From a virus, in IMG/VR virus record IMGVR_UViG_3300037264_006630, positions 32,001 through 96,000 of that record: a DNA stretch of 64,000 nucleotides, one strand, 5' to 3'. This document shows, in pieces, positions 27,750 to 47,793 of the stretch (positions are counted from its first letter, which is position 1; each line of letters starts with the position of its first letter). Under the pieces are notes generated by a model, which saw only the letters and a list, made by a program, of their open reading frames with translations, was not told the origin of the DNA and made no database searches. The position numbers and the translations under genes are program-made.

Positions 27750-27825
27750 TGGTACCACCTGCGGGACTCGAACCCGCACCACCCGGGTCTGAGCCGGGTA
27801 CCTCTACCAGTTGGGCTAAGGTGGC
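27750..27825 (-). tRNA. tRNA-Leu(CAG), short variable loop, CCA encoded
   Basis: GCCACCT/AGGTGGT acceptor, A73, CCCGG-CTCAGAC-CCGGG anticodon arm, GCGGG-TTCGAGT-CCCGC T arm. Confidence 0.9.
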
Positions 27826-27829
27826 GTCG

Positions 27830-27904
27830 TGTCGCGGGCGGGGGTCGAACCCGCACTGTCCGGTCCCTCAGACCGGTGCCTCCTGCCAATTGGGCTACCG
27901 CGAC
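27830..27904 (-). tRNA. tRNA-Leu(GAG), short variable loop
   Basis: GTCGCGG/CCGCGAC acceptor, A73, CCGGT-CTGAGGG-ACCGG anticodon arm, intact T arm. Confidence 0.9.
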
Positions 27905-27908
27905 GAGG

Positions 27909-27980
27909 TGCCGGCGAGTGGACTCGAACCACCAACTCGCGATTTTTGGGATCGCAGCCTCTGCCTTGGGCTACGCCGGC
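27909..27980 (-). tRNA. tRNA-Leu(CAA), short variable loop, C33
   Basis: GCCGGCG/CGCCGGC acceptor, A73, GCGAT-CCCAAAA-ATCGC anticodon arm. Confidence 0.8.
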
Positions 27981-28098
27981 CAGCTCGTCAGACGCACGAA
28001 CGACAACTCACGCCGATAGGCGGAGAAGTCGAAGTCGTGCGGAGAGCAATCGGCGGGTCACGTCACCCTGGTAGCACCGCGGCGCCGCCGTCGTCAAG

Positions 28099-28181
28099 CG
28101 GAAGGTGTAGGACTCGAACCCGCCCCACGAGGGGGCCACCGAGCTAGCAACCCGGGTCGCGCCCATGCGCGCTCACCTTCC
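28099..28181 (-). tRNA. tRNA-Ser(GCT), non-canonical 9/3-like fold
   Basis: G73, long variable arm, loop TTGCTAG, G8 pairs in an extended acceptor, 3-bp T stem, 5-bp D stem with 4-nt loop. Confidence 0.8.
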
Positions 28182-28186
28182 AGTCG

Positions 28187-28272
28187 CGGAGGCGTAGGGA
28201 GTCGAACCCGGCCCCTTGCGGGGCATCCTGTTTTCGGGACAGGCGTGGCCACCAACGGCCACCTCCACCTCC
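28187..28272 (-). tRNA. tRNA-Ser(CGA), non-canonical 9/3-like fold, C33
   Basis: G73, variable arm GCCCC-GCAA-GGGGC, CCTGT-CCCGAAA-ACAGG anticodon arm, 6-bp D stem, 3-bp T stem. Confidence 0.75.
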
Positions 28273-28344
28273 ATGCAGTGCGAGCCCCGAGAGGGGCTTC
28301 AAGAGCGACTGGATGAAGACGAGCGGCGGGTCACGAGCCGGACC

Positions 28345-28587
28345 CTACTCGTCCGAGCTCGGCGGCGCAAGCGCGATCTTGCAGGTCGTGCAACGAGCAC
28401 GGACACCGCCCCAGGACTCGGCCTCGTGGCCGCACTCGAGCTGGACGTGGTCGGGTGAGAAGATGGTCCCGGACGGCCGGAGCACTGCGACCACGCGGCG
28501 GAGTGGCGCACCACGTTTCTTCTTGCCGAGTCCGCCCGGCCCGATCGATCCGCCCTGCCGCATGTGCCTGTTGCTGATCCAACCCAT
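28345..28587 (-). CDS. small basic Cys/His protein
   Basis: AGGAGG SD; LECGH...CTTC. Confidence 0.6.
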   Translation of the reverse strand: MGWISNRHMRQGGSIGPGGLGKKKRGAPLRRVVAVLRPSGTIFSPDHVQLECGHEAESWGGVRARCTTCKIALAPPSSDE

Positions 28588-28838
28588 CGTGACCTCCTGT
28601 GGTGTAGACGGTGCGCGTTGCACTCGATCCACGTACCGGGCGTCTCACCCAGCGCTGGACATCGGTTGGGTGGCCTGATACGAAGGTCGGAGCTCGTCTG
28701 CCAACGGCAGAAGGAGTACCGGGGCCGTCACCGCAAGGCGGCGTCTCCGAACTAGGGTTGCTAGCCTCGTAGATTCTCGAGACGCCGCTGTAAACGGCGC
28801 GCCTTGGCCAGCGTGGTGAGACTCCACGGCAACCCACG

Positions 28839-29087
28839 ATGAGCGCCCCTGTGATGTACCGCCAGTGCGAGCTGCGCCGCGAGACGGCGACGGGAGTGGA
28901 GCGCTACGTCGCCTGGCTGCCCGCCGAGTTCCGCACCGGACGCATCGTGCGCATCGACGGTGAGGACTGTGTCTGGAAGATCGCGAGCCAGGGAGAAGCG
29001 CGCCCGGCCGAGATCGTCGAAGCGTACGAATCCAACGGACGGCGGGGCCTACCGTCAGTCTCGGGACACGCGCAGGAGATGGCGTAG
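28839..29087 (+). CDS. hypothetical protein
   Basis: ORF track; GC3-rich codons. Confidence 0.55.
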   Translation: MSAPVMYRQCELRRETATGVERYVAWLPAEFRTGRIVRIDGEDCVWKIASQGEARPAEIVEAYESNGRRGLPSVSGHAQEMA

Positions 29088-29312
29088 GTGAGCGAGGACG
29101 GCGACCCGCCTGACGAGGTGGCGGCGATGCGCGCCCGGAAGCATCCCGTGCTGGAGGATGATCTCCCCGGTGTCCCGGGAAAATTCGTGCTGCGTCTGCC
29201 CGGCTGCAAGCCGAACTACGTCTCCTCGTTCCGCGAGGACATGCGACGGGCAGACGCCTTCGTGGAGTCGTTCATGCGCGACTTCAAGAAGCCGCCGCGC
29301 GATCGCGCTTGA
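29088..29312 (+). CDS. hypothetical protein
   Basis: ORF track; abuts upstream stop. Confidence 0.5.
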   Translation: MSEDGDPPDEVAAMRARKHPVLEDDLPGVPGKFVLRLPGCKPNYVSSFREDMRRADAFVESFMRDFKKPPRDRA

Positions 29313-29398
29313 CTCCGGGCCCGGCCTTGGACTAGACAATGATTCCGGCCCGGCCGCCTGGGAGTCGCGCTCCAGGGGGCCGGGAACCACCGGGATGA

Positions 29399-29472
29399 TG
29401 CGGGGTAGAGCAGCCTGGTCGCTCATCGGGCCCATAACCCGAAGATCGGTGGTTCAAATCCACTCCCCGCAA
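29399..29472 (+). tRNA. tRNA-Met(CAT), initiator-like, C33, U1-A72
   Basis: GGG/CCC at the base of the anticodon stem, A11-U24, loop CCCATAA, T arm GGTGG-TTCAAAT-CCACT. Confidence 0.88.
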
Positions 29473-29486
29473 CTTGCCAAATGAAA

Positions 29487-39662: not shown

Positions 39663-39956
39663 TCAGCGGGGGACGGTGTGGCTGGCGATGAAGTCGCTGG
39701 CGATGATGCGGAGGGCCTCGTCCACCAGTGCGGCGATGTTGGTGCAGATCCACCGCTGGCCGAAGTCGATGTAGATGCCGTTCTTGAGGTCGGCCTCCAT
39801 CAAGGTCTTGAGGCACCACGACCCTGCGGTATCGTCGATCTTGAGCCCCGGGCCGCCGCCGAATCGGTCAGCGGTGATCTGGGCGGTGTGCTCGTACTTG
39901 CCGCGGGTGTCCGCGCAGTGGGCGACGGTGGTGAGCTTGAAGGGGAGGGTCAGCAT
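39663..39956 (-). CDS. hypothetical protein (in-frame upstream ATG at 40133)
   Basis: ORF track. Confidence 0.55.
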   Translation of the reverse strand: MLTLPFKLTTVAHCADTRGKYEHTAQITADRFGGGPGLKIDDTAGSWCLKTLMEADLKNGIYIDFGQRWICTNIAALVDEALRIIASDFIASHTVPR

Positions 39957-40146
39957 GGTCGTCGTCCTGGGTGCGGGGTCGTGGCCGGGTCGCGGGGCGG
40001 TATCTTTCCTCGGTCCGTCGGGGGCGACCCTGTGCAGAGCACCTGGGCGGTGATGCGGGATCCTCGTTCCCCCGACGGCCGCTCGACAGAGCCTCTGGGC
40101 GAGGATGCCGAGTACCGCCCGCCGCCCGTCCATGTCCGAGTGATAG

Positions 40147-40162
40147 AGCACGTCGCGTGCCG
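40147..40162 (-). promoter_or_regulatory. sigma54-type -24/-12 promoter
   Basis: CGGCAC-GCGAC-GTGCT; ATG 14 nt after the -12 C; palindrome and paired upstream sites present. Confidence 0.65.
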
Positions 40163-40214
40163 ATTCGTGCGCTCGTCGAAGTGTGCGAACCGGCTAGGAC
40201 GGCCACGGTCCGGA

Positions 40215-40313
40215 GTGTCGCTGGCGACGACAAAATCGGTGGCCCCGAGACGGTGGCGGCTCGATTGTCGTTCGATGCCGGATGGTTAGCCTCGGTGTCG
40301 CCGCCGACGACAG
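40215..40313. promoter_or_regulatory. pair of 19-bp GTGTCR-N5-GACGAC sites (40215-40233, 40295-40313)
   Basis: GTGTCGCTGGCGACGACAA and GTGTCGCCGCCGACGACAG. Confidence 0.7.
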
Positions 40314-40331
40314 TGCGACGGGTTGGCGCGG

Positions 40332-43300
40332 TCAGGCCGCCAGGACTTCGTGCGCCAACTCCAAGAGGAAGTTGCCCCCGCCCGCATCGAACTGCGCCAA
40401 GCCGCCAGCCTCGTCGCCGTCGACCAGCTCGGCCGCTCGCATCTTCCGGGCGATCAGGTCGGTCGCTGTCGCCTGCATCGTGCCGGCGTAGGCCAGGAAC
40501 ACGACCCGCACGGGCTTGATCTGCCCGAGCCGCCAACTCCGGCGGATCGACTGGCGCAGCGTGTTGATGCTGTACTCGATCCCGTACTGGACGATCGTGT
40601 TGGCGAACATCAGGTCCAGTCCCGTCTCGACCAACCTCCCGTTGGTGAACATCACATCGAAGCCGTCCTCGCAGCGATCGCGCATCCACTGCTCCCGCTT
40701 CTCGGGATCGACGCTCGAGTCGAGTTGGACGACACGCAGGCCAGAGGCTTCGAGCGCGGCACGGACGCGGGGACGGGCATCGCGGCGCTGGGTCTGGGTG
40801 AAGAACACCAGCACCTTGCGACCCTTGGCGTGCTCCTCGCGCACCAGCGCGATCAGCTCATCGTCCTTGGGGTAGGAGTCCGGCTCGATTGCCGGGGCCG
40901 ACGCCAGGAGGTCGCCGCGCTCACCGTCGTCGTCGGTGTCGTAGATCTCCTCGCTCTGGTCCGGGCGATCGGGGTAGCCGAGGCACGCCTGGAGGTAGGC
41001 GCCGAGCGCCTTGGGGTGCTTGCGGATCAGCTTCTTCAACTTGCCCTGGAGGTCGGCAACCGCCGCGAGGACGGCCGGGTCCGGCTGCACCAAGCGCACT
41101 TCCTCGGTGTAGTCGGGCAGCTCGAGCCGCAGGTCCCGGAGCTTGACGAACACCGTGAAGGGCAAGAGCAGCGGGATCATGGCCGGCGACATGCCTGGGA
41201 TCTCGCGGATGCGCCCGCCGGTGGTGCCCTTCCGGTAGCCGTACGTGCTGGTGCGCTCCTCCTCCTTGTAGACCGTCTCGAAGAGGCCGTGATGCTCGAC
41301 GAAGGTCGCGCAGTCGGTGTGCTTGTACGTGCGGCGGAACGTCGGGGAGAGGCGGAAGAGCAGGTGGAAGATTGAGGACGCCCGGCCGCCGTAGAGCGTG
41401 CCGGTCATGACCAGCACCTTCCGCGCGCTCGAGATCAGTTGGTGGACGGCGCGCGCCTGGTCGGTCTCCCCCTTCGCGTGCTGGTGCGCTTCGTCGACCA
41501 CCAGCACGTAGCGGCGCGCGTAGTGGTCGTGGATGTAGGCCGCCAGCGGCCAGCGCTTGGTGCCCTTGTTCGTGATCGGCACGACCTGCCAGAGCGGGCT
41601 GCGGCACTCGCTGCACTTCGCCTGGACCTTCCGGTCGATGACCTTCACCTCGGCGCCGCATGCCGGGCAGGCGGCGAAGCTTCGGCGCTCCGTGACCATC
41701 TCCGTGCTGGTCTTGTACGGCCACTCGGTCGATCGGGTGGACACCTCGCGCTCGACGATCTCGCTACCCCGGGTCCAGGCCGACTCCCAGCGGCACCCGA
41801 GCTTGGCGACCTCCTTGCTCAAGACCAAGTAGGTGGCCGTCGGGGAGGCAAAGAACGCATCCACGTCCGCCAACTTCCGGGCGATCATCGCGACGCCGCG
41901 CCGGCCAGTGATGGCCGTGATCTCGCGGACCCACTTGCGGGTGAGATGGGTCGGGCAGACGACCACGACCTTCCGCGCGTGCGCCAACTCGGTGGCGACG
42001 GTGGCCACGCTCGTCTTGCCGCACCCCATTTCGCCGCACAGGATCACCTCCTTGTGCCTGCGCCAGCGGTGAACCACGGCCGCCGCCGCCTCGCGCTGGA
42101 TCGGGAGGATCTCTGGCTCGTCCCGGCCGGGCAGGATTCCAGGCGCGGACAGGCCAGTGAAGTCGTAGGCGTCGAGGTCGCTCGGCTTGAACTGCGGGAC
42201 GTGCGCAGCGAGGATGCCGGCCGCCAACTCGTCGCCGTGCTGCGCGAACCAAGCGCTGGTCTTGGGCTGGTCGTCCTCGACTTGCCACGAATCGAGCACG
42301 CCGGTCTTGAGGTCGAGCACCGAGAGGTACGAGGCGATGCGCTCGCGCACGGTCCGCTCGCCCTCGCCCTGGATCTCGACGGTGGTCTTCACGCTCCCGC
42401 CCTTCACGAGCAACCCCCGAGGGATCGGAGCCACCGGATCGCCGCCGCAGGTGGCGGCGCAACCGCCGGACATGTCGGTGAGCTCGAGCCCGTTCAGGGC
42501 GCCGGCCGCCAGGAGCATCGCTTGGTGACCAGGCCGCGGCGCGAGTAGCGGCGCCAGCTCGTGCGCGGCACCCTCGCCGGTGTGGGCGATCCACTGCTGC
42601 GACAGCCACGCGCCTTCATCGTCGGCGGGCGCGTAGCTCTCAGGCGCGCGGCCGATCAGATCGACCTTCGCGGCGATGACCGGGACGCGGATCGGATAGG
42701 GCTCGGCGTCGACCAGCGAGGGCAGACCGTCGGGGTCGTCGAAGCACTCCACGTTGCCGTAGCCGTAGGTCGAGTTGGTGCGCTGCGCGAAGACCACGAC
42801 TTGATCGAAGGCGGTGACCTCGGGGGCCGGGAAGGCGTAGGCACGGATCGACGAGTAGTGGTTCCGCATGAAGGTGCGGAAGGACTCGATGCGCAGGAGC
42901 TTCCGCGGCACGATGTAGATCAGCAAACCGTAGGGGGCGAGGAAGCGAGTCGTCGCGCGCAGGAATTCGATCTCCTGGCGCATGTTGGCGCCCGTCTCGT
43001 CGGTGCCCTCGTCGTACGGTGGGTTGAGGAACAGGATCCCGAACGGCCGCGCCGCCCGGTCCGGCTCGTGCGTGTCGGGGTTGAGCGCTTTGCCCTTGCC
43101 GTCGAGCACGGCGAGCTGGTGGTAGGAGCCGTGCCGCACCCAGATCATCACGCGAGCAGCCATCGCCGCCCGCTCCTGGTGCAGCTCGATGCCGTACGTG
43201 ACAGCGCCCCACAACTTGCCCAGCGCCGCGGCGGCGTACCCCTCGCCAGCGCAGGGATCGAGGAGCGCAGTGCCGGCCGATTCCGGGTCGAGCCGAACGA

Positions 43301-43376
43301 TGCGCCCGATCATCTGGGTCGGGCGGTCCGGGGTCGGGTAGTAGAGCGCCTTGGCGACGGCTTCGAGGCGCGCCAT
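40332..43376 (-). CDS. DUF6094-type N6-adenine methyltransferase fused to an SNF2-like SF2 helicase (DarB-like architecture)
   Basis: YYPTP, LLDPCAGEG, GIEL, FLNPPY; GEMGCGKT, VVDEAH, TGTLYGG, VETGLDL, RQSIRRSWRLGQ. Confidence 0.88.
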   Translation of the reverse strand: MARLEAVAKALYYPTPDRPTQMIGRIVRLDPESAGTALLDPCAGEGYAAAALGKLWGAVTYGIELHQERAAMAARVMIWVRHGSYHQLAVLDGKGKALNPDTHEPDRAARPFGILFLNPPYDEGTDETGANMRQEIEFLRATTRFLAPYGLLIYIVPRKLLRIESFRTFMRNHYSSIRAYAFPAPEVTAFDQVVVFAQRTNSTYGYGNVECFDDPDGLPSLVDAEPYPIRVPVIAAKVDLIGRAPESYAPADDEGAWLSQQWIAHTGEGAAHELAPLLAPRPGHQAMLLAAGALNGLELTDMSGGCAATCGGDPVAPIPRGLLVKGGSVKTTVEIQGEGERTVRERIASYLSVLDLKTGVLDSWQVEDDQPKTSAWFAQHGDELAAGILAAHVPQFKPSDLDAYDFTGLSAPGILPGRDEPEILPIQREAAAAVVHRWRRHKEVILCGEMGCGKTSVATVATELAHARKVVVVCPTHLTRKWVREITAITGRRGVAMIARKLADVDAFFASPTATYLVLSKEVAKLGCRWESAWTRGSEIVEREVSTRSTEWPYKTSTEMVTERRSFAACPACGAEVKVIDRKVQAKCSECRSPLWQVVPITNKGTKRWPLAAYIHDHYARRYVLVVDEAHQHAKGETDQARAVHQLISSARKVLVMTGTLYGGRASSIFHLLFRLSPTFRRTYKHTDCATFVEHHGLFETVYKEEERTSTYGYRKGTTGGRIREIPGMSPAMIPLLLPFTVFVKLRDLRLELPDYTEEVRLVQPDPAVLAAVADLQGKLKKLIRKHPKALGAYLQACLGYPDRPDQSEEIYDTDDDGERGDLLASAPAIEPDSYPKDDELIALVREEHAKGRKVLVFFTQTQRRDARPRVRAALEASGLRVVQLDSSVDPEKREQWMRDRCEDGFDVMFTNGRLVETGLDLMFANTIVQYGIEYSINTLRQSIRRSWRLGQIKPVRVVFLAYAGTMQATATDLIARKMRAAELVDGDEAGGLAQFDAGGGNFLLELAHEVLAA

Positions 43377-43919
43377 CTAGCGAAGCTCCCCGGCGACCAG
43401 GGCATCGCGGACGATCGGCTCCCAGACCTCGCGCTTGGTCGCCACATGCCAGACCTCGCGCCCGTGGCCGGTGACCTCGGTGATGGCGCCGCGCGCGCGG
43501 CCGATGTCCCAGAGCGGCTCACGCCACGCCGCGCGCAGCGGAACCGGGCACCAGCGCGCCAGCCGGTCGAAGTAGCGGCGCTCGGCGTCCGGCCCGGTCT
43601 GGTAGACGTACCCCAGGTCCGGCGCGTTGTGGCCGAGCTGCTGGTGGAAGATCACGCAGTGCAGAAGCCCGCGCTCGAGGGGGGGGTTCACGGTGGTGTA
43701 GGACGCCCGCTCGGACTTCGCGATGTAGGTGTCGCCGACCTGGATCGACTCCCGGCGCCCGCGCCGGCCGACCACCGACAGGGTGGCCCATGCTGCACGC
43801 ACCGCGTTGCGGGGGCCGAACATGGAGATCAGCACCAACTCGGACCGGTAGCCGTTGCCGGTCACGCGCAGCGCGTCGGCATGGCAGGTGAGCGCGCCTT
43901 TGATTGCGAGGAGGATCAT
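43377..43919 (-). CDS. conserved partner protein upstream of the methyltransferase-helicase
   Basis: stop abuts the helicase ATG; LVLISMFGPRNAVRAAWATL; RWCPVPLRAAWREPLW. Confidence 0.6.
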   Translation of the reverse strand: MILLAIKGALTCHADALRVTGNGYRSELVLISMFGPRNAVRAAWATLSVVGRRGRRESIQVGDTYIAKSERASYTTVNPPLERGLLHCVIFHQQLGHNAPDLGYVYQTGPDAERRYFDRLARWCPVPLRAAWREPLWDIGRARGAITEVTGHGREVWHVATKREVWEPIVRDALVAGELR

Positions 43920-43957
43920 GGGTAGTCCAGGTATCACGTTGTCGGTGGAGCCCCGCC

Positions 43958-44203
43958 TCAGATGGCGCGGCGAACGAAGCGGATGTCCCGGGCGATCACG
44001 TCGCCGATGCGGTAGACGCCGTGCTGCACCGCAGCCAGGCCAGCGACGCTCATCACCACGGTCCCGTCCGCGATCGACTTCACCCGAGCGGTCACGTCCC
44101 GGCCCGCGTAGTCCTCGAAGACGCACAGACAGCCGGGCTCGAGGTCGGGCGCGATGGTCAGGTGGGCAGCGAGCTCGGGGGCCAGGATCGTCGCGTCGGG
44201 CAT
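43958..44203 (-). CDS. hypothetical protein
   Basis: ATG 13 nt after a sigma54 box. Confidence 0.6.
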   Translation of the reverse strand: MPDATILAPELAAHLTIAPDLEPGCLCVFEDYAGRDVTARVKSIADGTVVMSVAGLAAVQHGVYRIGDVIARDIRFVRRAI

Positions 44204-44215
44204 GTCAGGGTGTAC

Positions 44216-44231
44216 TGCACGCGCGGTGCCA
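44216..44231 (-). promoter_or_regulatory. sigma54-type -24/-12 promoter
   Basis: TGGCAC-CGCGC-GTGCA. Confidence 0.75.
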
Positions 44232-44284
44232 CTTCGTGCGCGCGTGCAAGTGTACGAAAGCCCCACGCACGGGCCCCCGTGGGG

Positions 44285-44395
44285 GTGTCATCACGGACGA
44301 CACTCGCGCGATCCGGCTGGAAATCAGCCGCGAGAATACGCAACAAGTGAAGCATCCACGCGATGTTGCCACCAGGGCGTCGTCGCCACCGACAC
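44285..44395. promoter_or_regulatory. pair of 19-bp GTGTCR-N5-GACGAC sites (44285-44303 on +, 44377-44395 on -)
   Basis: GTGTCATCACGGACGACAC and GTGTCGGTGGCGACGACGC, between divergent sigma54 promoters. Confidence 0.7.
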
Positions 44396-44526
44396 CGCGT
44401 GACAGGCGGTCACGGCGTCTCCTAACCACGCGGATTGTGGCGGCGGTCGGGCGCTGGTTTCGAGGCCGATCGGCGGCGGCGCGACGAGGTTACGCGCGCT
44501 TATACGGGAGCGCAAACGCCGTGACT

Positions 44527-44542
44527 TGGCCCGCCGACTGCA
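44527..44542 (+). promoter_or_regulatory. sigma54-type -24/-12 promoter
   Basis: TGGCCC-GCCGA-CTGCA; ATG 13 nt later. Confidence 0.75.
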
Positions 44543-44554
44543 ATACAACTCGGC

Positions 44555-44824
44555 ATGACCACGACGCCGAACGAGGCCGCGCCGCCCACCTTCTTCATCG
44601 TCACCGAGGACGGCAACGTCGATGCGCCGGACGTCGACTCCTTCCTCATGGCGGCGAAGATCCTCGGCCACGAGCCCACCGGCGCCCTGCGCCAGCGCGG
44701 CTCGATCCCGCTCCGGCCGGTGCTGCTCGGCCAGCCAACGTTCAAGACCCTCGCCGGCCCCATGTTCGACGGTGGCCGCATCCGCTACGAGACGATCAAG
44801 ATGAACGAGCGCCTCGCGACCTGA
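44555..44824 (+). CDS. hypothetical protein
   Basis: ORF track; leaderless start. Confidence 0.65.
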   Translation: MTTTPNEAAPPTFFIVTEDGNVDAPDVDSFLMAAKILGHEPTGALRQRGSIPLRPVLLGQPTFKTLAGPMFDGGRIRYETIKMNERLAT

Positions 44825-44834
44825 GCCCCACCCC

Positions 44835-45203
44835 ATGAGCAACCCCGACCCCGACCGCCTCGCGCTCACCTTCATGCTGGGCGCGGCGACGCGCGCAGGC
44901 GACTACCAGTTGGTGTCCGACGTGGCCCGTGCGCTCCTCGGCAACCCCGAGCTACGCGCCGCTTGCCTCGCCAGGAACGCCGCCAACGTGGTCAGGGTGC
45001 GTGCCCTGATGGCTCTCCGCTTCGAGCCCTGCGACGCCGCCTGCCCCGGCTGGGCCCTCATGAACGAGACCACGCACCCCGAGATCCAGCGCTGTGCCGC
45101 CTGCTTCTATGGCGTCAAGGGACCAACCGACGATGACGTGGGCGCGCTGCCCGAGGCGCAAGCGGCGCTGGCGCAGTACCAGCACAACGACAGCGAGGAC
45201 TGA
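44835..45203 (+). CDS. hypothetical protein
   Basis: ORF track. Confidence 0.6.
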   Translation: MSNPDPDRLALTFMLGAATRAGDYQLVSDVARALLGNPELRAACLARNAANVVRVRALMALRFEPCDAACPGWALMNETTHPEIQRCAACFYGVKGPTDDDVGALPEAQAALAQYQHNDSED

Positions 45204-45205
45204 CC

Positions 45206-45454
45206 ATGAACGCCAAGCTCCTGACCGTCGCAGACGTAGCCGCCTACGTGGTCGAACGGCCCTTCATCCCCAACCAGATCGCCGTCCTGATCCAAGACGG
45301 CAAGGCGCCGATCGACATCATCACCTGGCTGCGCGCCGGCATCCGGGCGGCCGGCGACACGGTCAACCCGATCGCCCTGCTCCACTGGCTGGAGCGCACC
45401 TTCCCGCAGGCGTGGCCGCCGTGCCTGCCGGCCACCGAGTTCACCGAGATCTGA
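45206..45454 (+). CDS. hypothetical protein
   Basis: ORF track. Confidence 0.6.
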   Translation: MNAKLLTVADVAAYVVERPFIPNQIAVLIQDGKAPIDIITWLRAGIRAAGDTVNPIALLHWLERTFPQAWPPCLPATEFTEI

Positions 45455-45492
45455 GCCGCCACCGTCTCGCGCGCTCCATCGAGTGTGTGAAC

Positions 45493-45508
45493 TGGCACCC
45501 GAAGTGCA
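45493..45508 (+). promoter_or_regulatory. sigma54-type -24/-12 promoter
   Basis: TGGCAC-CCGAA-GTGCA; ATG 13 nt later. Confidence 0.75.
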
Positions 45509-45520
45509 ATGCATCCGACC

Positions 45521-46426
45521 ATGACCAACACGACGATCCCGGCCGCGACCGCCGATCACCCCATCGCGAAGTGGTACACGGGCAAGGCCCGCCAGATCAT
45601 CCTGACCTTCGTCCTCCCCACGCTGGCGGAGGCCGAGGCTCTCGGCTACTGGCCGCCCAACACCAGCCGGAAGGTCGCCGCCGCCCTCAACAAGCAGACG
45701 GTGGCGGCGAGGTTCGGCAAGTCGCAGGAGCGCTACACCGGCGGCGGCCACAGCGACAGGTCGCCCGACCTGCTCTCCAACATCGGCGCCCCGGACGCGC
45801 ACCACGCCGAGACCGGATGGCAGCTCGTCCACGCGATGCAGTTCGGGCAAGTCGGCTACGCGCCCAAGGCGCTCGCCCTGGTCGAGAAACTGCGGCCCTA
45901 CGCCACGACGCCGGCGGCTGTGGCTGCGCTCGAGACGGCCGCGCAGTGGGCCCGGGACTTCGCCCCGATCGGAGAGCTGCTCGCCATCCTGGACGCCACC
46001 CGCCCGCGCCCCACGATCGTCCTCGGCTCGCTCTCCCCGACCGTCGCTGGCAACGTGGGAAAGCTGATGGGGATCGACTTCGCAACGATCGTCTACCCGA
46101 AGATCGAGTGGTCTTACAAGTGGATGGAGGTGATGGTGAAGGGGAAGCCGGTGCGGGCTCGCGTGAGCGTCGCGACGATCATCTGGCCGGACGGCACGCG
46201 TCACGACGTGTCGCGCTACGCCCACGGGTCCAAGTCGGGCAACGACCAGTGCCACGCCTGCGGCCACGCCATCTTCGACGGCTTCAACTGGTGCCCCCTC
46301 GTCGCCACCACCGCGGACGGTCCCGTGTCCCTGTGGGTCGGCCGGGACTGCGCCCGCAAGCTCTTTGCGGTCGACGTGAAGGGCGACGCGCTCTACGACC
46401 GCACCGCCGTCTCCGCCCCGGTGTGA
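45521..46426 (+). CDS. hypothetical protein with C-terminal Zn motif (CHACGH...WVGRDC)
   Basis: ORF track; leaderless start. Confidence 0.65.
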   Translation: MTNTTIPAATADHPIAKWYTGKARQIILTFVLPTLAEAEALGYWPPNTSRKVAAALNKQTVAARFGKSQERYTGGGHSDRSPDLLSNIGAPDAHHAETGWQLVHAMQFGQVGYAPKALALVEKLRPYATTPAAVAALETAAQWARDFAPIGELLAILDATRPRPTIVLGSLSPTVAGNVGKLMGIDFATIVYPKIEWSYKWMEVMVKGKPVRARVSVATIIWPDGTRHDVSRYAHGSKSGNDQCHACGHAIFDGFNWCPLVATTADGPVSLWVGRDCARKLFAVDVKGDALYDRTAVSAPV

Positions 46427-46440
46427 ATCTGGGACACGGG

Positions 46441-46542
46441 GTGTCGGTGGTGACGACAGGTAGCCGGCAACGCCGCGCGTTCACTGGAGAAAACACCCGG
46501 TATCCATAGGATTCCGGGTGTGGGTGTCGGTGGCGACGACAC
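46441..46542. promoter_or_regulatory. pair of 19-bp GTGTCR-N5-GACGAC sites (46441-46459, 46524-46542)
   Basis: GTGTCGGTGGTGACGACAG and GTGTCGGTGGCGACGACAC. Confidence 0.75.
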
Positions 46543-46601
46543 TCCGGACGCCGCGTCCTCCCCGGGCGCCACGTTTCGTGCGCTTCCACGCGTGTGCAAA
46601 C

Positions 46602-46617
46602 TGGCCCGCACCCTGCA
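46602..46617 (+). promoter_or_regulatory. sigma54-type -24/-12 promoter
   Basis: TGGCCC-GCACC-CTGCA; ATG 13 nt later. Confidence 0.75.
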
Positions 46618-46629
46618 ATACACCCAGAC

Positions 46630-47049
46630 ATGACCACCTCGACGATCTGCGGTACCTGCGGCTGCGACACCACGGCCACCGATGGTCGGGTTGCCTGCTC
46701 CGCCTGCAAGCCGTCGTTCGCCCGGGTCACCCTGACGCTCCCGACCGGCACGGTCGAGCATGCCGAGTTGGCGATGTACGCCTGGTGCGGCGGCGGCACC
46801 CTCACCACCGCGCGCTTCACCGTCTGCGGTCTCGAGTTCGTGGCTCGTCGCTTCTGGCGTCGGGACATGGGCTGCGCTGGCATCGAGCTCTACACCGTCT
46901 GCCGCGGCGGCCTCGGGTCGGAGGATCCGATCGAGGGCTACTACTGCGACGCCAAGACCGACCCGGCGTCGCGCCGCGCCAAGTACCTCATCGCGGCGGG
47001 TCTGGCCGGGACCTCCGATCGCCCCCTGGATCTCGACCTCGCGGCCTGA
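46630..47049 (+). CDS. Cys-rich hypothetical protein
   Basis: CGTCGC...CSAC; leaderless start. Confidence 0.6.
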   Translation: MTTSTICGTCGCDTTATDGRVACSACKPSFARVTLTLPTGTVEHAELAMYAWCGGGTLTTARFTVCGLEFVARRFWRRDMGCAGIELYTVCRGGLGSEDPIEGYYCDAKTDPASRRAKYLIAAGLAGTSDRPLDLDLAA

Positions 47050-47054
47050 CCCGC

Positions 47055-47070
47055 TGGCACGCAGCATGCT
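47055..47070 (+). promoter_or_regulatory. sigma54-type -24/-12 promoter
   Basis: TGGCAC-GCAGC-ATGCT; ATG 14 nt later. Confidence 0.6.
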
Positions 47071-47083
47071 CAAGAGGAAAACC

Positions 47084-47398
47084 ATGGCCCGCATCGCTTT
47101 CGACCCCGCCGCCTACGCCCGCCTCTGCCGCCTCGCCACCGCTCTCCAGCGGCTCGTGCAGCGCTGGGAAGGCTACGCGGCCGACGCCCGGGACGATGCT
47201 ACCGAGGCCCGCTGGGTGCTCAACCTGGCGACCGCCCGCGCCTTCCAGCGCGACGTGCGCGCCGACCTCCTGACGGAGACCATCCGGAGCGAGATGGAGC
47301 CCCGACTCCTGACGCGCGCCGTCTACTCCGGCCCGGCTCCGGACCGCTGCAACAGCCGCGAGATCGACGCCGCGCCCTACGTCGCCGACGTTCGCTAA
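47084..47398 (+). CDS. hypothetical protein
   Basis: GAGGA SD; GC3-rich codons. Confidence 0.6.
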   Translation: MARIAFDPAAYARLCRLATALQRLVQRWEGYAADARDDATEARWVLNLATARAFQRDVRADLLTETIRSEMEPRLLTRAVYSGPAPDRCNSREIDAAPYVADVR

Positions 47399-47407
47399 CC
47401 AACCCCC

Positions 47408-47445
47408 TTGACCGCGCACGGTTCGTGCGTATGATGGTGTGTATG
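47408..47445 (+). promoter_or_regulatory. class A leaderless promoter
   Basis: TTGACC-16-TATGAT-7nt-ATGAA, with TTCGTGCG. Confidence 0.75.
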
Positions 47446-47793
47446 AACGCAGCGCAGTTGCAGCCCGTCACGTTCGCGACCGTCATCACCGCGATGACCG
47501 TCGACATCCTCCTGGGCATGACCGACGCCGAGCTCATCGCGGCCTGCACGGACCCGACGAGCCCGGCCTACAAGTTCGTCACCGACACCGACCGGTCCCA
47601 CGCCGAGGAGCAGCTCCGGCTTCGCGCGCCGCAGACGATCGACGAGTTCCGCAACCGCCGCACCCGCAACGCGGCCGTGGACGCCGCGACCCGCGCCGCC
47701 GAGTACCTCCGGTCCCGCCTGGCGGCCCGATGCCGTTCGTGCTGGCGCGTGATCGTCGCTCGCGGACTCTCCACCGAGGAGCGATCGTCGTGA
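47443..47793 (+). CDS. hypothetical protein
   Basis: ATG at class A promoter. Confidence 0.6.
   Translation: MNAAQLQPVTFATVITAMTVDILLGMTDAELIAACTDPTSPAYKFVTDTDRSHAEEQLRLRAPQTIDEFRNRRTRNAAVDAATRAAEYLRSRLAARCRSCWRVIVARGLSTEERSS

Follow-up and report, generated by a model that had tools for sequence, protein, structure and literature searches.

The IMG/VR virus record IMGVR_UViG_3300037264_006630 is the genome of an uncultured phage, 184,943 bp long, with direct terminal repeats and a guanine-plus-cytosine (GC) content of about 69%. We analysed a 64,000-nt stretch of it (the window; bases 32001-96000 of the record), in which six copies of a promoter-like cassette lie at 40-47 kb. Positions refer to the window unless marked as genome positions. 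Each cassette has a core of the form tGGCAC-N6-TGCW, which is closely followed by an ATG, and several carry a palindrome and paired dyads upstream (Table 1). The cassettes are probably promoters of the host sigma54 (RpoN) polymerase; we infer the sigma54 dependence and the start site from the arrangement of these elements.

A first-pass annotation of the window had reported six sigma54-type -24/-12 boxes. All six were found at the positions it gave, with exact GG-N10-GC spacing, and the distance from the C to the ATG is 13 nt at four of them and 14 nt at two. The palindrome that it described, TTCGYRCRC-N8-GYGYRCGAA, is 26 bp long and ends 2 nt before the GG at four boxes, with 0-2 mismatches. 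The shifted copy proposed for box 3 (44527) is only a weak one with 3 mismatches, 11 nt away, and box 6 (47055) has none. Its three pairs of upstream sites were also recovered, as dyads of the form TGTCG-N7-CGACA.

The gene map is a rough one, drawn from third-position GC across the whole phage genome. The cassette block had been described as flanking the methyltransferase-helicase operon; box 2 heads that operon and apparently drives it. The 1014-amino-acid product of this operon is a DUF6094 methyltransferase fused to an SNF2-type helicase. In the box 3 operon, there is no alternative in-frame start upstream of the cassette ATG.

A family of cassettes with a conserved core

As the first-pass annotation had expected, the motif is more frequent than in shuffled DNA. 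The pattern GGCMC-N6-TGC-N13/14-ATG occurs 16 times in the 185-kb genome, whereas 60 dinucleotide-preserving shuffles of the whole genome averaged 0.65 occurrences and never exceeded 3. The bare core is weakly enriched in the window, about 2-fold (8 vs 3.7 in shuffles). The 16 cassettes span genome positions 72 to 115 kb and ten of them lie beyond the window, so the block at 40-47 kb that was first delimited is one part of a larger family. All 16 are intergenic, each facing a gene with coding-type composition, and they are placed at operon heads or divergent junctions. At five, no other in-frame start is possible.

The cassette at genome 105313-105385 has a full core, the operator palindrome and a dyad pair, but at 13-14 nt there is no ATG; a leader of about 50 nt with an AGGAGGA ribosome site precedes the start of its gene. 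Because the core is kept despite this leader and its ribosome site, it would be conserved as a transcription signal and not as a translation signal; the AGGAGGA-led gene also indicates that ordinary ribosome sites are used by the host too.

When the cassettes were aligned on the core, information was concentrated in t-GGCAC and TGC-W, and the spacer was unconserved. The GG and GC doublets are exactly 10 bp apart in 16 of 16. Both the spacing and the consensus are those of a sigma54 promoter, and the sigma70 -35 and -10 elements are absent: a consensus scan found no sigma70-type promoter at the six window boxes, and a TAnnnT hexamer is present in two of the 16 cassettes.

For an independent comparison, we used an Escherichia coli sigma54 matrix consisting of column counts over 42 intergenic-sense motifs from chromatin immunoprecipitation sequencing (Table 1 of PMC4591121), and scored it at every phage position (about 370,000). 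The matrix placed 10 cassettes within the top 18 positions, and the six cassettes with CGGCAC or with G before TGC ranked 59-118 or lower. Since a GGCAC-N6-TGC pattern had been used to collect the family, there is some circularity in this test; even so, the conserved cassette motif scores as real sites do. The cassettes do not keep the first T of TTGC, which 13 of the 42 E. coli sites also lack. The sigma54-type reading of the first-pass annotation has thus gained a consensus profile, an independent matrix and the lack of -35/-10 elements, and it fits better than the rivals considered below.

Of all phage positions, genome 167575 (+) matches the matrix best (CTGGCACGCAACCTGCT). This site, which is accompanied by neither operator nor dyads nor a nearby ATG, is located upstream of the DnaB-like helicase, where third-position GC is low and TCCGGA and CAGCACAG motifs are repeated.

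Box 6 has the best matrix score among the 16 cassettes. It lacks both operator and dyads, and a Shine-Dalgarno (SD)-like GAGGA precedes its ATG, which makes it the least certain of the six boxes; it may be an internal promoter or a chance match. The genes under the cassettes are mostly small orphans without a Pfam family. The recognisable products are the 1014-amino-acid fusion and two PAPS-reductase-domain (PP-loop) proteins. The cassette gene profile is accessory or DNA-modification-like, whereas the sigma70 class of promoters described below serves structural and replication genes. Elsewhere in the window, five tRNA genes (three Leu, one Ser and one Met) lie at 27750-29473, and Arg and Val tRNA genes are found elsewhere in the genome.

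Table 1. Cassette elements, the genes that they face and operator sites of the second promoter class (window positions)
Feature	Position	Strand	Remarks
156-amino-acid gene, no Pfam family	39663-40133	-	started by the ATG of box 1
Core box 1, CGGCACGCGACGTGCT	40147-40162	-	GG-N10-GC; ATG 14 nt after C
Operator palindrome, 0 mismatches	40164-40189		ends 2 nt before GG of box 1
Proximal dyad TGTCG-N7-CGACA	40216-40232		centre 63 bp upstream of box 1 GG
Distal dyad	40296-40312		centre 143 bp upstream of box 1
Box 2 operon	40332-44203	-	81- and 180-amino-acid genes, then the 1014-amino-acid fusion
Core box 2, TGGCACCGCGCGTGCA	44216-44231	-	GG-N10-GC; ATG 13 nt after C
Operator palindrome, 0 mismatches	44233-44258		2 nt before box 2
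Dyad	44286-44302		proximal to box 2 (64 bp); 234 bp from divergent box 3
Dyad	44378-44394		distal to box 2 (156 bp); 142 bp upstream of box 3
Weak operator-like palindrome, 3 mismatches	44491-44516		11 nt before box 3, displaced by 9 nt
Core box 3, TGGCCCGCCGACTGCA	44527-44542	+	GG-N10-GC; ATG 13 nt after C, at 44555
Box 3 operon	44555-45454	+	small genes of 89, 122 and 82 amino acids, no Pfam family
Operator palindrome, 2 mismatches	45466-45491		2 nt before box 4
Core box 4, TGGCACCCGAAGTGCA	45493-45508	+	ATG 13 nt after C, at 45521; no dyads
301-amino-acid gene, no Pfam family	45521-46426	+	
Distal dyad	46442-46458		centre 153 bp upstream of box 5
Proximal dyad	46525-46541		centre 70 bp upstream of box 5
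Operator palindrome, 1 mismatch	46575-46600		2 nt before box 5
Core box 5, TGGCCCGCACCCTGCA	46602-46617	+	ATG 13 nt after C, at 46630
139-amino-acid gene, no Pfam family	46630-47049	+	
Core box 6, TGGCACGCAGCATGCT	47055-47070	+	ATG 14 nt after C, at 47084
Second-class promoter, for contrast	47408-47447	+	TTGACC-N16-TATGAT-N7-ATG; operator 47422-47447 over -10 box and start codon
Second-class 26-bp operator sites	2770, 10793, 17021, 24286, 29552, 47422, 55484	+	
Second-class 26-bp operator sites	23531, 33766, 39394	-	

Palindrome, dyads and candidate regulators

The phage also contains about 23 clean sigma70-type leaderless promoters, with cTTGAC, a 16-18 nt spacer, TAnnnT, 7 nt and an ATG. The phage thus has two promoter classes, and it is the cassettes that lack -35 and -10 elements. 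The 26-bp palindrome is common to both classes; about 40 copies are present, at almost every promoter-like site. In the sigma70 class, both the -10 box and the start codon fall within it, with ATGAA forming its right arm, and this placement appears to be a repressing one. In the cassettes, it sits between the proximal dyad and the -24 box, and its gap to the core varies by 1-3 nt. The core is kept without the palindrome at 47055 and at genome 113178, and 44527 has only the displaced weak copy. By analogy with the dispersed operators of temperate phages, the palindrome looks like an operator for one repressor and not like part of an enhancer. Because it occurs in both classes, one repressor could silence both; such a repressor is probably phage-encoded. 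No tyrosine integrase was found in the phage. A ParB-like gene is present.

Genome-wide, the dyads form eight pairs and two single copies, all upstream of cassettes, and 11 of the 16 cassettes have them. At two divergent junctions, one pair is common to both promoters. The dyad centres lie either 60-70 bp or 142-157 bp from the GG, and these two distances differ by about 91-92 bp, nearly nine helical turns. Judged by position, the placement is enhancer-like, and we treat the dyads as putative sites. The first-pass annotation had read the paired upstream sites as enhancer-like; this stands, given the two preferred enhancer-type distances of the dyads.

Two known regulators were tried as dyad binders and rejected. 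NifA binds TGT-N10-ACA, and the phage TGT-N11-ACA is one base longer. MrpC, a CRP-family protein of Myxococcus, has the imperfect palindrome TGTY-N8-RACA as its site (PMC4320627), and the phage TGTC-N9-GACA is again longer by one base.

The absence of an activator gene from the window had been noted before. We extended the search by six-frame family profile searches over the whole phage genome, and found no working activator gene in the window or in the rest of the phage. Sigma54_activat and Sigma54_activ_2 gave only two sub-threshold P-loop matches in the whole phage, and Sigma54_DBD, Sigma54_CBD, Sigma70_r2 and HTH_8 gave none. No T7-type polymerase matched in the phage, in a search whose positive control gave no match either.

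One gene of the phage (L124:1771-2862, +) encodes a degenerate relative of enhancer-binding proteins with an FHA-like N-terminus. Its Walker A motif reads GPRGTEGE, without the lysine, and it has no segment for the GAFTGA loop. The lid domain is kept (22.7 bits, below the cut-off), as is a C-terminal helix-turn-helix-like segment, and a small family of metagenome relatives shares 39-50% identity with it. Judged from its domains, the protein could bind activator sites without activating. Because its gene lies in a recently arrived transposon, it cannot be the ancestral regulator of the 16 promoters.

Host lead and chromosomal counterparts

The transposon is intact, measures 6,051 bp and lies outside the window at genome 14769-20819. 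It has perfect 16-bp inverted repeats at its ends (GGCTTTGCCCGCAAAC) and a 9-bp target duplication (GCTGGCCTC), indicating that it is a recent arrival. Its cargo consists of a SWIM-DDE transposase, a 979-amino-acid N6-methylase/HSDR_N protein and the FHA/activator-like gene. Adjoining the insertion is a gene for a 335-amino-acid protein (L123:13420-14427, +) whose only class I release factor domain is PCRF.

Relatives of the transposase reach 81% identity in metagenome contigs. Those assigned to organisms are found only in Kofleriaceae and Myxococcales metagenome-assembled genomes (MAGs), at 61-63% identity, and for the FHA/activator-like protein, each of the ten nearest Atlas clusters is from Myxococcota. 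The host is thus probably a member of Myxococcota, which we take as a lead and not as an assignment. Both Myxococcota MAGs with the nearest organism-assigned transposase relatives contain rpoN (Sigma54_DBD at E = 1e-65), so a host with sigma54 is plausible. Enhancer-binding proteins are generally abundant in Myxococcota, in line with these Atlas clusters. The delta-proteobacteria rank high for leaderless genes, with a mean of 15.8% in genomes having them (PMC3160421); a high GC content and abundant leaderless genes fit such a host.

Other routes to the host were discarded. With tblastn, the terminase, helicase and DnaB matched unrelated hosts at 38% identity or less. Plasmid matches to the methyltransferase-helicase (Thermus, 37%) were not taken as host evidence, and WhiB, tried as an actinophage marker, is absent. 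In the protein atlas, the terminase fell only in viral clusters and so carries no host information. No terminase relative was found in IMG/VR or metagenomes; the best match, 31% identical, comes from a MAG that shares its class with the Kofleriaceae MAG, on a contig with no cassettes.

We then surveyed the distance from the -12 element to the start codon in chromosomes, using TGGCAC-N5-TTGC followed by an ATG 11-20 nt on, in 101 Myxococcota and 101 Pseudomonadota genomes. The Myxococcota gave about 300 matches vs about 45 for a reversed control. Gap lengths were read by hand for 150 matches listed per phylum, with orthologous promoters counted repeatedly. Among the 150 of about 300 Myxococcota matches so listed, gaps of 11 to 20 nt occurred 13, 13, 18, 41, 16, 14, 11, 6, 7 and 11 times, respectively; among the 150 listed for Pseudomonadota, the counts were 12, 13, 12, 29, 13, 10, 17, 11, 15 and 18. 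A -12 element coupled to a start codon 14 nt away thus occurs in chromosomes, most clearly in Myxococcota, and the 13/14 nt of the phage coincides with the chromosomal peak. The excess at 14 nt suggests that near-leaderless sigma54 transcripts may be a general, overlooked class. A Kofleriaceae MAG has three such close box-ATG sites vs none in the control. In one Myxococcota chromosome, the phage dyad precedes a canonical box that is 13 nt away from the ATG of a leucine-rich repeat (LRR) lipoprotein gene.

Proposed mechanism, alternatives and known systems

Sigma54 polymerase cannot open DNA alone and needs an AAA+ protein with a GAFTGA loop. In the mechanism that we propose, tGGCAC-N6-TGCW would provide the -24 and -12 elements read by the host sigma54 polymerase. 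By the usual start rule, 12 nt after the C, transcripts would carry a leader of 2-3 nt before the AUG, or none if they start 14-15 nt after the C; a leader of 2-3 nt implies translation like that of a leaderless message. An AAA+ enhancer-binding protein on the TGTCG-N7-CGACA dyads, at about 62 and about 153 bp upstream of the -24 GG, would activate, reaching the polymerase by looping. Since the phage encodes no such activator, this would most likely be a host protein. A repressor bound to the operator would silence the cassettes and the sigma70-type leaderless promoters alike. The identity of the activator, the repressor role of the palindrome and the host are likewise inferred. Taken whole, the proposal is tentative: a Myxococcota phage may hand 16 operons to host sigma54 and one host enhancer-binding protein, with a phage repressor holding both classes off through the shared operator.

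Several observations count against this proposal, beyond the circularity and the lower ranks in the matrix test. A TAC is conserved 3-5 nt after TGC, outside the classical sigma54 consensus. In most copies, where the gap is 2 nt and the ATG distance 13 nt, the palindrome centre lies at -41.5 from the A of the ATG. The dyads of a pair, about 92 bp apart, are spaced more widely than is usual for one activator hexamer. The transposon is the sole source of the host lead, and the 14-nt peak, weaker but present in Pseudomonadota, gives no pointer to the host phylum. Across 301 Myxococcota genomes, a search for a host regulon with dyad plus core gave 9 matches vs 2 in the control; the genes downstream were unrelated (LRR lipoprotein, aldehyde dehydrogenase, DUF2330 protein), and none was shared. 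No related phage carrying the cassette was found in IMG/VR, GTDB genomes or JGI metagenomes, where all matches were chance or unrelated ones. The sole methyltransferase-helicase relative found (72% identity) has no cassette and uses ribosome sites.

The main rival, unlikely as we judge it, dispenses with sigma54. A phage factor, by sigma appropriation or as a novel sigma, would redirect the host polymerase to start at the A of the ATG, with GGCAC, TGC and TAC as the bases that it contacts, and a dimer on the palindrome would act as a class II-type activator. The position -41.5 is the classical class II activator position for sigma70 polymerase, which applies only if transcription starts at the ATG. 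On this view, one protein would be both repressor of the sigma70 class and activator of the cassettes, a double role like that of lambda CI at PR/PRM. This rival also draws on the conserved TAC, for which sigma54 does not account, and on the tentative nature of the host lead and of the host rpoN. However, the conserved blocks are two sigma54 elements at exact spacing that score like E. coli sites, whereas the -10 hexamer TAnnnT of a class II sigma70 promoter is missing from nearly all cassettes. The core is kept where the palindrome is missing or displaced, and dyads at two phased distances would be superfluous. No sigma-like or polymerase gene was detected in the phage, though novel ones could escape.

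Another reading, of small probability, keeps sigma54 and moves the activation to the phage: an unrecognised phage protein on the dyads or the palindrome would be, or would recruit, the ATPase, giving the phage its own timing. The dyads and the palindrome are phage-specific, found nowhere else in the collections searched, and the 301 Myxococcota genomes revealed no host regulon with the same dyad. Most phage genes are family-less orphans, and the phage carries the degenerate FHA/activator-like protein with its helix-turn-helix-like segment. However, an AAA+ protein with a GAFTGA loop is needed, and the whole-phage searches produced nothing but the two sub-threshold P-loop matches; the degenerate protein, which has neither the Walker A lysine nor the loop segment, resides in the recent transposon.

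A host extracytoplasmic function (ECF)-type sigma, reading the CGAA of the palindrome right arm as -35 and the TAC region as -10, is very improbable. By eye, the layout is ECF-like in having GAAC-like sequences about 17 nt ahead of the TAC block, and Myxococcota have many ECF sigmas. ECF promoters have a GGAAC-like -35 and a CGT/GTC-like -10 element around an unconserved spacer of 16-17 nt. However, the best-conserved GGCAC and TGC would fall in that spacer; the palindrome-less cassettes keep the core without the CGAA arm that would be the -35, and the palindrome-to-core gap is variable. Finally, that the cassettes are no promoters at all, but a repeated recombination, packaging or translation signal or a chance pattern, is hardly credible: the roughly 2-fold enrichment of the bare core would suit it, but not the 16 full copies vs 0.65 expected, their intergenic placement facing genes at operon heads and divergent junctions, or the copy about 50 nt ahead of a gene with its own ribosome site.

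As a rule, phages have sigma70-type promoters or promoters served by sigmas or polymerases of their own. No description of a phage regulon dependent on sigma54 was found in the literature searched, whose coverage is incomplete. If the host-sigma54 proposal is true, the phage would provide the first case of a sigma54-based phage regulon. Because sigma54 promoters are silent without an activated ATPase, the cassette operons would be conditional on a host signal: their genes would be expressed only while a certain host signalling pathway is active, and with a third of the phage operon heads so conditioned, the virus would be reading the host state. The cassettes would also be minimal sigma54 expression units with almost no leader, occurring naturally in 16 variants; operator to ATG takes up about 65 bp, or about 200 bp with the enhancers. 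They would suit the study of sigma54 start-site choice, of leaderless translation and of a repressor placed between enhancer and core.

Among known systems, the glnAp2/NtrC and nifH/NifA promoters share with the cassettes the GG-N10-GC spacing, the TGGCAC/TGCW elements, the lack of -35/-10 elements and the position of dyad sites, here about 85-180 bp upstream of the predicted start; activator sites typically lie 80-200 bp from the start. The cassettes differ from bacterial sigma54 promoters in lying in a phage, in their 16 copies and in the 26-bp operator abutting the -24 box, and from sigma54/NifA systems in the TGT-N11-ACA dyad and the pair spacing of about 92 bp. Their predicted leader is 2-3 nt, whereas E. 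coli protein-coding examples have leaders of at least 18 nt (PMC4591121, Table 1).

The palindrome has its closest analogues in temperate phages. P1 C1 operators, mycobacteriophage L5 stoperators and phiC31 conserved inverted repeats are dispersed repressor operators; as in the phage studied here, one short operator is repeated at many promoters, so that a single protein may silence them. Unlike in these systems, the operator lies over -10/+1 in one class and just upstream of -24 in the other. A phiC31-type early promoter, supposedly -24/-12-like, was also considered as a model. The phiC31 early promoters (NC_001978) have a different motif, GGGTTGCCGACTCCCTTAC with a CCTACTCACGTGAGTAGG repeat, and SD-led genes with ordinary ribosome sites; they are unrelated to the sequences found here, and phiC31 was kept as an analogy for dispersed operators.

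Coupling of phage expression to a host regulator, and through it to the host state, is known from phages of Alphaproteobacteria with CtrA boxes in their promoters (PMC9437464). Those phages use a sigma70-type response regulator, whereas the cassettes would use sigma54 and an ATPase activator. In high-GC bacteria and their phages, leaderless promoters have TAnnnT about 7 nt before the start codon, and the second promoter class of the phage is of exactly this type. The cassettes share with these promoters a fixed, minimal distance to the ATG, with the geometry set by the -12 element instead.

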